Numbered from the stretch's first letter, positions 5,811-59,330 are shown. The stretch: DNA of 64,000 nucleotides from Candidatus Aenigmatarchaeota archaeon (GCA_016187335.1 JACPJW010000001.1:64001-128000), one strand, 5' to 3'. Numbers and translations are program-made. Notes: generated by a model from the sequence alone, not told the origin.

Positions 5811-5840
5811 TTTTTGATCAAACTTTTTCTAAAAGTTTGA
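5811..5840. repeat. Dispersed TTTTGAT-hairpin repeat (representative copy)
   Basis: TTTTTGATCAAACTTTTTCTAAAAGTTTGA. Similar copies at about 11086, 12468-12525 (tandem pair), 13620, 14900, 14955, 15105, 17054, 17515, 17690, 19284, 19888, 23384, 35467, 40177, 40263, 40325, 40355, 49658 and 59203. Confidence 0.9.
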
Positions 5841-5911
5841 TAGGGTGCAAGGTATTTCCGTTTCTGAACCCGCCAAGAAACTTATAAAGCAGACTTCACC
5901 AATAATCAATC

Positions 5912-6913
5912 ATGCGCGGCATAACCCCGGTCGTAGCAATAATACTTCTTTTACTCATAACAATCTCCATGGTCGGATTCGCTTTCATGTTCTTCACGCG
6001 CACGGCTCAGACATCCGCAGAAAGCGGCGAGGAGCAGCTGGAACAGCAGCTGCAGCAGGCTTCCGGGCAGTTCTCCATAGAAGGCACATCGCCTTCCGCG
6101 CAGGTTTACGTCAGGAACCGCGGTTCGGCTCCGCTGGCAAATTTCAGCGTTTACGTTGATGATGCGCTGGTGCAGTTTTCTGCTGTTGGCGTGCCGCCGG
6201 GATCCATCGGCTCGATAAACATTACGACCCAGCTGAGCGCGGGAACGCATAGGGTGAAAGTATGCACCGCATCGTTGTGCGACAGCTACGCGCTTGTTAG
6301 GGATACATTAGGCGACGGGCTTGTCCTTTACCTGCCCATGAACGAAGGCAGCGGCTCATCCACCGCGGACGCGAGCGGCACAGGCAACAACGGCGCGATT
6401 TCCGGCGCGACATGGACATCAGGAAAGAGCGGCAGCGCCCTGCAGTTCGACGGGACGGATGACATGGTCCAGACCGGGACGAACCGCATGACGAAGGAAG
6501 CATTTACGCTTTCGTTCTGGATAATGCCCTTTTCCGTGCAGGACGGTGGCATCTATTTTATGTCCCCCATCCAAGGCGACTACGCTACACGCATGCGCGT
6601 GACGCCGTCCGGTCAGGTATGCTCCGGGGTAATGTGGATTACTGACTGGTGCTACCAGGCGAACTACTCGATAAACACATGGCATCATTTCGCCGTCACA
6701 AGGCAATCCAACGAGACATGGACAGTCTACTTCAACGGCGTTCCTGTCAGAAGCGCTTTCCTGGAAACTCTGCCGCTATTGACAGGTTCGTTTATCGGAA
6801 GGTATGGGGACGGCTCGACATGGCATTATTTCAACGGCAAGATAGACGAGGCGCGCGTTTACAACCGCTCGCTTTCATCGGCAGAAATAAGCCAGCTGTA
6901 CGCAAAGGGATAA
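5912..6913 (+). CDS. Type IV pilin-like protein with C-terminal LamG/concanavalin-A-like domain
   Basis: Class III signal MRG/ITPVVAIILLL; LamG motifs LVLYLPMNEG, ALQFDGTDD, WHHFAVT, FNGKIDEARVYNRSLS. Confidence 0.88.
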   Translation: MRGITPVVAIILLLLITISMVGFAFMFFTRTAQTSAESGEEQLEQQLQQASGQFSIEGTSPSAQVYVRNRGSAPLANFSVYVDDALVQFSAVGVPPGSIGSINITTQLSAGTHRVKVCTASLCDSYALVRDTLGDGLVLYLPMNEGSGSSTADASGTGNNGAISGATWTSGKSGSALQFDGTDDMVQTGTNRMTKEAFTLSFWIMPFSVQDGGIYFMSPIQGDYATRMRVTPSGQVCSGVMWITDWCYQANYSINTWHHFAVTRQSNETWTVYFNGVPVRSAFLETLPLLTGSFIGRYGDGSTWHYFNGKIDEARVYNRSLSSAEISQLYAKG

Positions 6914-6916
6914 ATA

Positions 6917-7675
6917 ATGAAAAAGGGAATTACGCCCATTATAGCTATAATCTTGTTATTGCTCATCACGATTTCCATGGTCGGATTCGCTTTCATGTTC
7001 TTCACTCGCACGGCGCAGACGTCCGCGGAAAGCGGCGAGGAGCAGTTGCAGCAGCAGATTTCGCAAGCGGCTGTTAGTTTCAAGATTGAATCCGCGGCTT
7101 CCAACAAAATTTACGTGCGTAATCTTGGCGGTGAAAGCATCAACGCATCGGTATTCGGCGTATACGCTGGCGACATGCCGGTGACATTTTCAGGTCCCGC
7201 AACGATATCCCCCAACGCAGTGGGCGAACTGGCGCTTTTCAGGCATCTTTCCGGTACTCATGTTTTAAGGATTGAAAGCGGCGTCAAAAGCGATTTCATT
7301 ACCGCAAATTTCGGCCCGTGCCCTTCAGGCTGGATTGAATATGACAGTCATTGCTATAAAACAGCGGGATCCGGCGTATGGAACAGCGTGGAATCGGAAT
7401 GCCTCTCCAATAACGCGCACCTTGCGACGATAAGCAATGCGTCTGAAAATTCGTTCGTGAAAAGTCTGTGGCCGCTGAACGATGATGTATGGATAGGATA
7501 TAATGACATGTCCCAGGAAGGAACATTCAGATGGGCCAGCGGGTCATCGTCTTACCTGAACTGGGCAGCCGGGGAGCCCGATAATACAGCGGACAAGGAC
7601 TGCGTTGAAATCACAGCCAGCGGCGCGTGGCAGGTCCGGGGATGCTTCAATTATTTCGTCGGCGTGTGCGAGTAA
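6917..7675 (+). CDS. Type IV pilin-like protein with C-terminal C-type lectin domain
   Basis: MKKG/ITPIIAIILLL; CPSGWIEYDSHCY, HLATISNASENSFV, VWIGYND, FRW, WAAGEPDN, DCV and final VCE match the CTLD Cys/WIG pattern. Confidence 0.88.
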   Translation: MKKGITPIIAIILLLLITISMVGFAFMFFTRTAQTSAESGEEQLQQQISQAAVSFKIESAASNKIYVRNLGGESINASVFGVYAGDMPVTFSGPATISPNAVGELALFRHLSGTHVLRIESGVKSDFITANFGPCPSGWIEYDSHCYKTAGSGVWNSVESECLSNNAHLATISNASENSFVKSLWPLNDDVWIGYNDMSQEGTFRWASGSSSYLNWAAGEPDNTADKDCVEITASGAWQVRGCFNYFVGVCE

Positions 7676-58045: not shown

Positions 58046-58256
58046 CTCGGCTATTAACTACAGCGTAAAGCAGTTTTCTTCTTCTGTCAGAAAACGAGAA
58101 TGATTCCGCAATTGCTTTCCGCCTTCTGAGCACGGAAATATTGTACCTTAGAGTTCTCTCTGGAACTCTGATTGATTCGCGCAACTGGCGGATATTCATA
58201 GGTCTAGAAGAAAGAGCTTGTAGAATTCTTCTCTGCAGGACGCTTTTCACGTTCAC
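58026..58256 (-). CDS. Winged-helix transcriptional regulator
   Basis: RILQALSSRPMNIRQL...VPERTLRYNISVL. Confidence 0.7.
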   Translation of the reverse strand: MNVKSVLQRRILQALSSRPMNIRQLRESIRVPERTLRYNISVLRRRKAIAESFSFSDRRRKLLYAVVNSRVDNNAG

Positions 58257-58316
58257 CCATCGGAATCACTTGCACTTCATGTACGTGCACACTTTTATTC
58301 CTTTTCATAGCGGCAA

Positions 58317-59186
58317 CTATTCCAAAATCCTGACGTCATCCACGACGCCGTCGTAATCGCTGTCCAAGCCAAGGACAACGTGCGCGTTCTTTTTCTGTAT
58401 TTCATCGAAGCGCTTGAGAAGAGCAAGCACGGCCGCGCGCGTTCCTGAAAACCTTTTCCCGGCTATGAGCAGCAGCTTGCTTTTCCGGTTGAAAGGGTTG
58501 TCCGCCTTGACGATGATGCCGCACTCGTCGCTCCTATAAGTTTTTTTCGTGAGCGATGAGTAGATGTTCTTTTTTGCGTCGAACCGGACGGGCAGCTTGT
58601 CATTGACCGCCCTGGTTATCCTGTTTATGACGGGCCCGCCGATTATTATCAGGTTTTCTTTTACCTCATGCAATTCCGTGTCAAGAACAACAGAAGGCTC
58701 GCTTTTGTTAAGGAACGTTCCCAGAAACAGCGCAAGGTCTATGGCATAGGAAGCATCGCGTGAGCGGGCGCGCTCAGGGCCGTGAGGGTCAGGCGAGCCC
58801 ACGACGATCTTCGCATTGAAAACGCCTTCAGCAATGAAGGGTTCAAGGAATTTGTTGGCTGTTTTAGGAATTTTCTCCGTCTTCTCAAAGTCGCGGAATT
58901 TCAGGAAGAAAGAAGGCTTTGTCAAAACATAAATTTTTGCCAATGTTCCTCCTCTTTCCTCTTTCCTCAGGACCCTTATGATTCCTTGCTTCTCTAGGTT
59001 ATGTACATGGTAGTAAACCTTCTGCTCGTGCATGCGCAGTTGCGCAGCCATTTCCTTGGGGTACGAAGGTTTTTTCGCGAGGGAATGCAGGATCTTCATC
59101 GCCGTCTCAGAAAAATCGGCCTTGCCAAGCTCCGCCGAGGGCAGCGCCAGCACCCTGCCGTCTTTTTCTTCAACTACAAATGCCAT
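58317..59186 (-). CDS. ArsR-like wHTH protein with C-terminal alpha/beta domain
   Basis: KILHSL...SYPKEMA..L.MHEQKVYYHVHNL; C-domain ENLIIIGGPVIN. Confidence 0.75.
   Translation of the reverse strand: MAFVVEEKDGRVLALPSAELGKADFSETAMKILHSLAKKPSYPKEMAAQLRMHEQKVYYHVHNLEKQGIIRVLRKEERGGTLAKIYVLTKPSFFLKFRDFEKTEKIPKTANKFLEPFIAEGVFNAKIVVGSPDPHGPERARSRDASYAIDLALFLGTFLNKSEPSVVLDTELHEVKENLIIIGGPVINRITRAVNDKLPVRFDAKKNIYSSLTKKTYRSDECGIIVKADNPFNRKSKLLLIAGKRFSGTRAAVLALLKRFDEIQKKNAHVVLGLDSDYDGVVDDVRILE
58321..58351. repeat. 31-bp perfect direct repeat, copy 2 (3' end of 58317-59186)
   Basis: Identical to 56335-56365. Confidence 0.9.
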
Positions 59187-59330
59187 TATAACCACAAGTC
59201 TCTTTTGATTGAACTTTGGAGCAGCAAAGTTCATCACACTTCGTAATACTTTACATTATAAATTTTCTTATAATACATTTATAAATTTTTTAGCAAATCT
59301 ATTTAAAACATTCGTGCCCGTAGTCTTAGG

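Follow-up and report, generated by a model that had tools for sequence, protein, structure and literature searches.

Features of the locus

A 64,000-nucleotide stretch from a Candidatus Aenigmatarchaeota archaeon (GCA_016187335.1, JACPJW010000001.1:64001-128000), called the window below, was analysed for a dispersed family of short palindromic repeats that is shared by intergenic spacers and stable RNA genes. The window represents bases 64001-128000 of contig C2, one of the two contigs of a 1.01 Mb genome (47% G+C, 91% complete); genome size ranges from 0.4 to 1.2 Mb throughout the order's 70 genomes. Occurrences of the window DNA are confined to groundwater metagenomes. Two of its RNA genes are interrupted, tRNA-Pro(CGG) by two inserts and the signal recognition particle (SRP) RNA gene by one (Table 1). 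Two small structured modules, found both in such inserts and as free copies, are building blocks of predicted bulge-helix-bulge (BHB) introns in this DPANN-like archaeon.

Module 1, or the unit, was defined by its structure: a stem of 7 bp or more that begins no further than two bases after TTGAT. In RNA sense it reads as a hairpin, NN-AACUUUU / AAAAGUU-N'N', then AUCAAAA, and the shared core is a hairpin-plus-tail module of 26-30 nt. A preliminary description of the window had announced about 18 copies of TTTTGAT plus hairpin, and the count holds: with up to 2 mismatches allowed, the 16-mer TTTTGATCAAACTTTT has 19 matches in the window, compared to 0.16 expected from shuffles. The genome-wide count that it had called for gave 114 units in the structural scan, against 6-12 in shuffled genomes, and as 101 of the 114 are of the AACTTTT type, the genome can be said to hold about 100 units. 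The two bases at the foot of the stem, after TTGAT, vary (CA, GA, GC, TA, TG, AG, GG), and the 3′ arm changes to match. Such compensatory changes between arms mean that the hairpin itself is under constraint.

A chance likeness of AT-rich hairpins, an alternative named from the start, or an assembly artefact might be suspected behind these figures, as the motif is AT-rich and a strict form of the unit pattern also matches unrelated bacterial and viral contigs. The shuffled controls refute this explanation, a reversed-pattern control gave 0-1 match of the strict pattern per genome, the same stretch is present in an independent 2017 metagenome study, and the same modules occur in separately assembled relatives. 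We consider it virtually eliminated.

Units are arranged in several ways. Arrays are direct tandems (12471/12500 in the window, C2:803322/803349 and C2:419585/419615 elsewhere). Small hairpins of the GAAGC-NNN-GCTTC type and four nested arrangements (13620-13702, 14980-15056, 17595-17670 and 19890-19970) were all read directly from the window where they had been reported. Across families of the order, module copies of 35-45 nt are 92-97% identical.

Module 2 is made of a pyrimidine arm, a complementary purine arm and a second purine arm that mirrors the first. Its existence had been proposed from a copy at 10736 and reversed copies at about 11712 and 14227, and the proposal was correct, with 4 pattern hits in the window for 0.12 expected. 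A finder of homopyrimidine/homopurine hairpins proved too strict (14 hits), so that module 2 was located by BLAST instead, which detected six copies in the genome. The module occurs in tRNA-Tyr, tRNA-Ser(GCU), a tRNA locus at C2:723338 (tentatively Pro(TGG)), tRNA-Arg(GCG) and SRP RNA. The SRP copy and the free copy at 14227 align over ~58 nt.

Two predicted introns in tRNA-Pro(CGG)

In its unspliced form, tRNA-Pro(CGG) is missed by both ARAGORN and Rfam, neither of which finds any tRNA in the window. Only once both inserts are removed in silico does ARAGORN call a tRNA-Pro(CGG), of 73 nt. The central helix of the insert at position 37/38, UUCG/AGAA, has 3 of its 4 pairs; the bulges read GG|C and CC|A, and an extra copy of the arm contributes to the inner helix of 10 bp. 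The T-loop insert forms a strict hBHBh' motif, with a fully paired central helix UUCA/UGAA (4/4), both bulges AA|U and an inner helix of 11 bp.

Both inserts share one layout, X, X', AUCAAAAG, X''. The unit hairpin arises from X and X', and X'', a second purine arm, pairs with X to give the inner helix of the BHB motif. The three arms covary between copies (UGAAC, GCAAC, CAAAC). This X/X'' pairing bears out the earlier suggestion that an extra partial copy supplies the inner helix in the tRNA introns. From the structure that they are predicted to adopt, we conclude that the two inserts are probably BHB introns, to be excised as such.

The comparison of empty and filled sites that had been advocated revealed differences between orthologues. 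Among nine tRNA-Pro(CGG) orthologues, the T-loop intron is present in two, those of this genome and of G002, which are near-identical; the 7 others are without it. At position 37/38, the intron content is of unit type in three orthologues, of module-2 type in three, and unrelated in at least 2. An exact search of the metagenome contigs for an intronless tRNA-Pro T arm returned no match.

An insert in the SRP RNA gene

The SRP RNA gene has 142 nt where the RF01857 model has 23. Taking the insert out leaves an SRP RNA of 271 nt, with the junction CCUGU|AACC found in 43 intronless relatives. The predicted motif has a fully paired central helix (GCCU/GGGC, 4/4) and an inner helix GAGACC/GGUCUU, with GU|A bulged out on the 5′ side and two A on the 3′ side. 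With the standard two 3-nt bulges, the outer helix has a length of 1 bp in this genome and of 0-5 bp among the 13 inserts described below; a 2-nt 3′ bulge brings it to 6 bp here. Because the outer helix is weak in the standard geometry, the SRP motif is a relaxed kind of BHB. We therefore describe the insert as a BHB-type intron, for which splicing is probable on structural grounds.

Module 2 makes up the first 42-58 nt of the insert. An identity of 91-93% over 54-58 nt links this part to the T-loop introns of two tRNAs of the same genome, tRNA-Tyr and tRNA-Ser(GCU). G015, another genome of the order, has ~50 nt in common between its SRP insert and its tRNA-Pro(CGG) intron. No TTGAT unit was found within the insert (10730-10849). 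The claim that the same sequences build both tRNA-Pro introns and the SRP intron is thus true in part: each tRNA-Pro intron contains one unit, the SRP intron contains module 2 and no unit.

Of the 21 SRP genes surveyed first, from as many genomes of the order, 16 measured 268-273 nt with an uninterrupted CCUGU-AACC, and 5 were interrupted exactly there. In a wider sample, 15 of 58 SRP genes were enlarged (305-399 nt), 13 of these 15 being interrupted at the same junction and two elsewhere. Presence of the insert varies inside five genera (g9, g12, g17, g30 and g33). The inserts at the common junction are of several unrelated sequences; in g17, for example, two filled genomes contain different inserts and six are empty. 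The central helix is 4/4 paired in 10 of the 13 inserts, and its intron strand follows the exon (GCCU/GGGC, CCUG/CAGG, UAUG/CAUA, ACCU/AGGU, GUAA/UUGC). An exact search of the metagenome contigs for an intronless SRP junction found no match.

Repeats also lie directly behind the 3′ end of SRP RNA. The hairpin-plus-AUCAAAA unit seen there in the window is likewise present in G007, G026, G017 and G005. Counted by genus, this position is taken by a unit in five genera, by a module-2 copy in three, and by an oligo-T run in the others.

A few further observations concern SRP RNA. The two inserts at other positions (loci L364 in G012 and L370 in G061) lie after columns 151 and 165 of the core alignment, and the one in G012 is of module-2 type. 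The SRP exon before the intron (10720-10729, GGTTGCCTGT) is almost identical to the tRNA-Tyr exon before its module-2 intron (GGTTGCCGGT then TCGAA; C2:717623-717637), which may be due to chance or may hint at intron transfer through short exon homology. Finally, behind SRP RNA (~11138-11182) and tRNA-Pro (~40389-40428) alike, the units are followed by a trailer module of ~45 nt, made of ATAATATGGTCTGGACAGAAT, a small hairpin and ATTCTGGGCAG, with further copies in this genome and in its sister genome.

Predicted introns elsewhere in the genome

In this genome few tRNA genes pass the Rfam cut-off (11-12); the number is 3-35 across the order. A strict genome-wide BHB scan combined with ARAGORN after 1, 2 or 3 excisions recovered the tRNA set only partly, and the triple excisions gave nothing; a BLAST chain search with 40 reference tRNAs delivered 19 loci. 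Some 35 tRNA loci could be defined. As this inventory is incomplete, the share of introns holding a repeat is a lower bound. Nine of the ~35 loci hold 11 units, all of which read hairpin then AUCAAAA in the RNA, and at seven tRNA loci a unit lies at most 35 nt from an end.

Besides tRNA-Pro(CGG), at least 8 tRNA genes and those for 16S and 23S rRNA are interrupted by copies of the same design. Both rRNAs and at least 9 tRNA loci contain unit mini-introns of 42-50 nt, the tRNA sites being D loops, position 37/38 and T loops. The 23S rRNA gene (C2:208273-212555) measures 4283 nt for a model of 2987 nt, i.e. it is ~1.3 kb longer, and the 16S rRNA gene (C2:239678-242953) is split into two Rfam pieces ~1.2 kb apart, with further inserts. 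Each of the two contains one unit mini-intron of 46-50 nt with a BHB motif, in the same orientation. Overall, 13 of the 13 units in stable RNA genes have the hairpin-then-AUCAAAA orientation in RNA sense. The four exon-pairing bases of the T-loop introns differ so as to match their site (UUCA/UGAA versus UUCG/CGAA). Enclosure of units by BHB candidates does not discriminate, with 73 cases in RNA sense and 75 in antisense.

A splicing endonuclease gene is present on contig C2 (PF01974, 97.4 bits), and encodes a single 202-residue unit of the alpha type.

Copy number and habitat of the units

With the strict unit pattern, 78 copies were counted here and 21 in the sister genome, whose completeness is 56%; in 29 further genomes of the order the count is 0-7. 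A 13.3-kb contig of the sister is syntenic with positions 10.9-25 kb of the window, its genes being 70-80% identical, and contains one unit where the window has ten. This alignment has gaps at three units (17520, 17692 and 19288) and at the composite 13616-13700. When contigs from four DNA runs were compared to positions 5700-25699, breaks at repeats and repeat-mediated joints were observed, and no clean empty site.

In the low-copy genomes the units occupy a different place. We examined 40 units from 14 such genomes outside the genus: 21 are in tRNA introns and 1 in an rRNA-like intron, 4 immediately follow a stable RNA (16S rRNA, a tRNA, and SRP RNA twice) and 1 just precedes a tRNA, 1-3 come after a protein stop codon, 2 are nested in module 2, and 8 were left unclassified. 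At least 26 are therefore in, or directly against, stable-RNA genes. A unit directly behind 16S rRNA is found in two families. In the present genome, only ~12-15 of the 101 units have the third arm, the remainder being free; most of the free units immediately follow a stop codon or the 3′ end of a stable RNA gene. Since units of low-copy relatives are mostly in RNA introns, these data suggest that the intron is the conserved and primary habitat, and that the free copies are a recent expansion specific to this genus. The direction first proposed, an intergenic repeat colonising essential RNAs, is probably the reverse of the true one.

The free copies have preferred positions and orientations. 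In the genome, 22 of the 101 units abut or overlap the stop codon of an open reading frame (ORF) of at least 80 codons, compared to 4% for random positions, and the arms UGAAC, UAAAC and UAGAAC themselves provide stop codons. In spacers between co-directional genes, 32 units read hairpin then AUCAAAA in the mRNA and 7 the opposite. Free copies over the whole of contig C2 are biased towards one strand (66 plus, 25 minus), in parallel with the cumulative GC skew and the gene-strand bias, and between pairs of plus-strand genes the orientation is split 6 to 7. As the strand bias runs along with both GC skew and gene strand, effects of transcription and of replication are inseparable for the free copies.

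Outside the order, the strict pattern is also found in many DPANN and methanogen metagenome-assembled genomes (MAGs), where excision of the unit yields a tRNA for at least 8 of 92 units. Multiple copies are also harboured by one Aminicenantes MAG, by Oscillospiraceae MAGs and by IMG/VR contigs, giant-virus MAGs included (L147, L154, L250 and L271 are among the loci). Some of these bacterial and viral matches are tandem arrays of six; they may be related elements or convergent AT-rich palindromes.

Table 1. Interrupted RNA genes, introns and repeat copies in the window (positions are counted from its first base).
Feature	Position	Strand	Remarks
tRNA-Pro(CGG) gene	40139-40322	+	exons 40139-40176, 40242-40262, 40309-40322
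65-nt predicted intron, position 37/38	40177-40241	+	one unit (read on minus strand) and one small hairpin
46-nt predicted mini-intron, T loop (59/60)	40263-40308	+	one unit
Two units	40325-40384	-	begin 2 nt behind the tRNA-Pro 3′ end
SRP RNA gene, 391 nt with intron	10695-11085	+	Rfam RF01857, 97.9 bits, model positions 1-317
120-nt predicted BHB-type intron	10730-10849	+	SRP Alu domain, between helices 3 and 4
Module 2	10733-10774	+	5′ end of the SRP intron
One full and one partial unit	11086-11136	-	directly behind the SRP RNA 3′ end
Diverged free module-2 copy	11709-11753	-	directly behind the stop codon of small ORF 11758-12282, pilin-like gene cluster
Free module-2 copy	14222-14269	-	directly behind the stop codon of small ORF 14271-14780, pilin-like gene cluster
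Free unit	5814-5839	+	between two plus-strand genes
Two tandem units	12471-12525	+	next to the TGA stop codon of minus-strand gene 12526-12972, which they abut; the sister genome has another unit subtype here
Composite element	13616-13700	+	two small hairpins inside the stem of the unit; immediately after a TAG stop; missing from the sister's syntenic spacer
Repeat-rich spacer	14903-15132	+	units at 14903 and 15107, nested composite 14956-15056; spacer of 400 nt versus 127 nt in the sister
Free unit	17056-17081	+	its arm gives the TGA stop codon of the upstream reading frame
Units and nested hairpins	17520-17719	+	units at 17520 and 17692, hairpin block 17584-17668; sister spacer of 39 nt is an empty site
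Free unit	19288-19317	+	sister lacks ~58-70 nt here, unit included
Composite element	19888-19970	+	two small hairpins within the unit stem
Free unit	23382-23409	-	structural scan, 16-mer match
Free unit	35468-35497	+	abuts a TAG stop codon
Free unit	49660-49685	+	16-mer match
Free unit, GGAGCAGC-loop subtype	59205-59233	+	structural scan

The repeat-rich spacers of Table 1 sit between genes of a cluster of at least 7 small paralogues (11219-17211, minus strand). Three of five genes tested match Pilin_N, the N-terminus of archaeal type IV pilins, the best match (35.1 bits) being the sole one above the 25.2-bit cut-off of Pfam. The 5′ coding ends of the cluster genes are themselves a hairpin-containing DNA repeat (12197-12247, 16969-17030, 17461-17510 and 19804-19860). 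Further away, a remnant of an integrase-core transposase (rve_3, 21.6 bits, below the cut-off) was detected at 54132-54335, in an 870-nt stretch which, on a crude ORF map, has no ORF of at least 70 codons.

Origin and spread of the modules

We propose, with a probability of about 0.55, that the family is a non-autonomous element which proliferates at the DNA level and has the BHB intron as its home. A third arm copy, added to the hairpin, could pair with the first arm in place of the second. This alternative pairing would form the inner helix of the splicing motif, while four bases at the 3′ end of the intron would pair with the exon. Insertions into RNA genes would persist as the splicing endonuclease removes them, and the element would have spilled recently into intergenic DNA in this genus. 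Differences in presence and absence between orthologues, at the tRNA-Pro T loop (2 of 9) as at the SRP junction (13 of 58 filled), are what ongoing intron turnover would produce. Of the REP-like selfish element first imagined, tolerated where it creates a BHB, several parts are retained, namely a dispersed family shared by introns and intergenic DNA, the BHB geometry and the presence/absence differences; the HUH mechanism is not.

The main competing explanation is that the modules are selected functional signals in RNA or DNA, and not selfish mobile DNA: a binding site for a processing factor, for instance, a 3′-end or stability hairpin, or a terminator blocking antisense transcription. High copy number would then reflect recruitment of a useful motif, which in introns could aid folding or splicing. 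The identity of modules across families, the single orientation of the units in stable RNA genes and the excess of units that abut or supply stop codons all point that way. Longer T runs (TTTTTGAT plus CTTTTT) lie on the strand opposite the RNA, which makes an antisense terminator conceivable. Conservation across families together with the recurrent position behind SRP and 16S RNA keeps this explanation alive. A general signal, however, is expected throughout the order, and not at 78 and 21 copies in one genus versus 0-7 elsewhere. Tandem arrays, copies nested in other modules, empty orthologous sites, and one unit type at three tRNA positions and in rRNA also speak against it. On balance we hold it to be rather unlikely, and add that a selected motif and a proliferating element are not mutually exclusive. 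Two specific functions were rejected. A terminator acting in RNA sense does not agree with units sitting inside tRNA and rRNA genes, which need read-through transcription; and the UGAUGA...CUGA of some units is not a C/D-box signature, as the boxes are missing from most units.

If the family is a proliferating element, how does it move? Repetitive extragenic palindromic (REP) elements and the ends of IS200/IS605 are short units of motif plus hairpin handled by HUH (Y1) transposases, and ISDra2 targets TTGAT. By analogy, the units could be REP-, REPIN- or PATE-like elements moved as single-stranded hairpins by a REP-associated tyrosine transposase (RAYT) or an IS200/IS605 transposase of the HUH (Y1) class, with TTGAT as the target or cleavage site. 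The TTGAT-plus-hairpin anatomy and the compensatory variation in the stem fit such a model, and the strand bias that parallels GC skew might be linked to replication. There is also a relic of 45 residues resembling a Y1 C-terminus, with an internal stop (C2:791846-791974, 16.7 bits), the sole trace of the Y1 family in the genome. The Y1/RAYT gene flanked by units that this model had led one to look for was not found, however: no Y1_Tnp gene is over the cut-off in this genome or in the sister, and no TnpB zinc-ribbon domain in this genome. Intact Y1 genes were detected only in G008, G016 and G028, genomes with 0-2 units, whose IS200-type elements end in GC-rich hairpins that bear no relation to the AACTTTT stem, and the arrays are direct tandems, not inverted REPIN doublets. 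The absence of Y1 from the high-copy genomes and the unrelated IS200 ends mean that the HUH/REP model is not supported, and we judge it improbable.

A different, G+C-richer repeat family is present in the window at 2271-2396 and 63954-63997, with 8 and 6 BLAST copies in the genome. Its hairpins (CCACCGACT-AAA-GTCGGTGG and CCCACGACT-TTA-GTCGTGGG) resemble the end hairpins beside the intact IS200-type Y1 genes of G016 and G028, and it is a better PATE/REP candidate than the AACTTTT units.

Spread could also take place through RNA, by reinsertion of excised, possibly circular, introns in reversed endonuclease and ligase reactions, followed by copying into DNA. This would agree with exon-pairing bases tailored to each site, with the strict orientation in RNA genes and with introns as the main habitat in low-copy genomes. 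Yet no reverse transcriptase domain was found in the genome, which leaves an RNA-level route without an enzyme for copying RNA back into DNA, and most copies of this genome are free intergenic units without the third arm. We know of no case of reverse splicing by archaeal endonucleases. This route appears highly improbable.

A bolder version of the proliferating-element proposal, to be taken as possible and tentative, is that the units and the three-arm module are mobile mini-introns across many archaeal lineages, having no known transposase and inserting at the DNA level into loops of tRNA, rRNA and SRP RNA. Such mini-introns would survive by carrying their own half of the BHB splicing signal, and could burst into gene 3′ flanks and supply stop codons there.

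Several points weigh against our preferred reading of a non-autonomous DNA element. Excision of the introns is deduced from predicted structures. No mobilising enzyme was found in the genome, and neither a clean target-site duplication nor exact borders of insertion could be made out. The genes of the nearest genome are 70-80% identical to those of the window, a distance at which spacers turn over anyway. The 92-97% identity of modules across families agrees with a selected, functional RNA motif no less well than with a selfish element, and units directly behind SRP RNA in several genera, at a place occupied by an oligo-T terminator elsewhere, suggest a function. Lastly, the SRP RNA tree is compatible with a single gain of the module-2 inserts and later losses.

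The route by which archaeal introns arrive is still an open question (2026 preprint). The present lineage makes it testable, because it combines one sequence module in introns of four essential RNA classes with free copies, a copy-number burst confined to one genus, and many empty and filled orthologous sites. If true, the idea of mobile mini-introns would mean that archaeal introns are still being born, and by a direct route.

Comparison with known systems

Bacterial intrastrand triplex (PIT / TMECO) repeats (Holder et al. 2015, PMC4666352) resemble module 2, which also has a pyrimidine tract, a complementary purine tract and a mirror purine tract, and is dispersed at variable loci. Unlike them, module 2 is A/T-rich, archaeal and located in introns, and the triplex likeness is at the sequence level only. 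An equally valid view of its third arm is that of an alternative Watson-Crick partner, which would form the inner helix of a BHB.

With REP and REPIN elements the units have in common that they are short extragenic palindromes with a fixed flanking motif, placed behind genes, in many copies and with compensatory stem changes. They differ from REP/REPIN with RAYT by the lack of a Y1/RAYT gene, by the direct tandems and by the copies inside RNA genes as predicted spliceable introns, and from IS200/IS605-derived elements by unit ends that do not match the hairpins of the lineage's own Y1 genes.

ARMAN-2 (Ca. Micrarchaeum) is an ultrasmall archaeon in which most tRNA genes have introns at non-canonical positions (Fujishima et al. 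2011, PMC3239211), and where the D stem of tRNA-Pro(CGG) is nearly unpaired (PMC3239211). The paper mentions no repeats, in contrast to the situation described here, and the single alpha-type unit of the present endonuclease differs from the three-unit epsilon-2 enzyme of ARMAN-2.

The circularly permuted SRP RNA of Thermoproteus is processed at a BHB motif, and an ancestor with simple BHB introns has been proposed (Plagens et al. 2015, PMC4731332). The SRP RNA of the window would likewise depend on the tRNA splicing endonuclease, to judge from its predicted fold, whereas its gene is collinear, with one internal 120-nt insert in the Alu domain that is polymorphic between genomes. A literature search for an SRP BHB intron of this kind found no published case in the library that was covered. 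Simple BHB introns at one recurrent site, with several unrelated inserts, match the prediction of Plagens et al. (2015).

The closest precedent is provided by the tRNA genes of Thermoproteales, in which near-identical BHB introns at different positions and in different genes were read as gained by transposition (Fujishima et al. 2010, Mol Biol Evol 27:2233, as cited in PMC3239211, PMC4731332 and PMC10714607). The high identity between introns of different tRNA genes and positions is the same here. The differences are that the present host belongs to a DPANN-like order with genomes of ~1 Mb, that a defined hairpin-plus-tail core with a three-arm design can be recognised, and that the modules are also found in SRP RNA, in 16S and 23S rRNA and as ~85 free intergenic copies.

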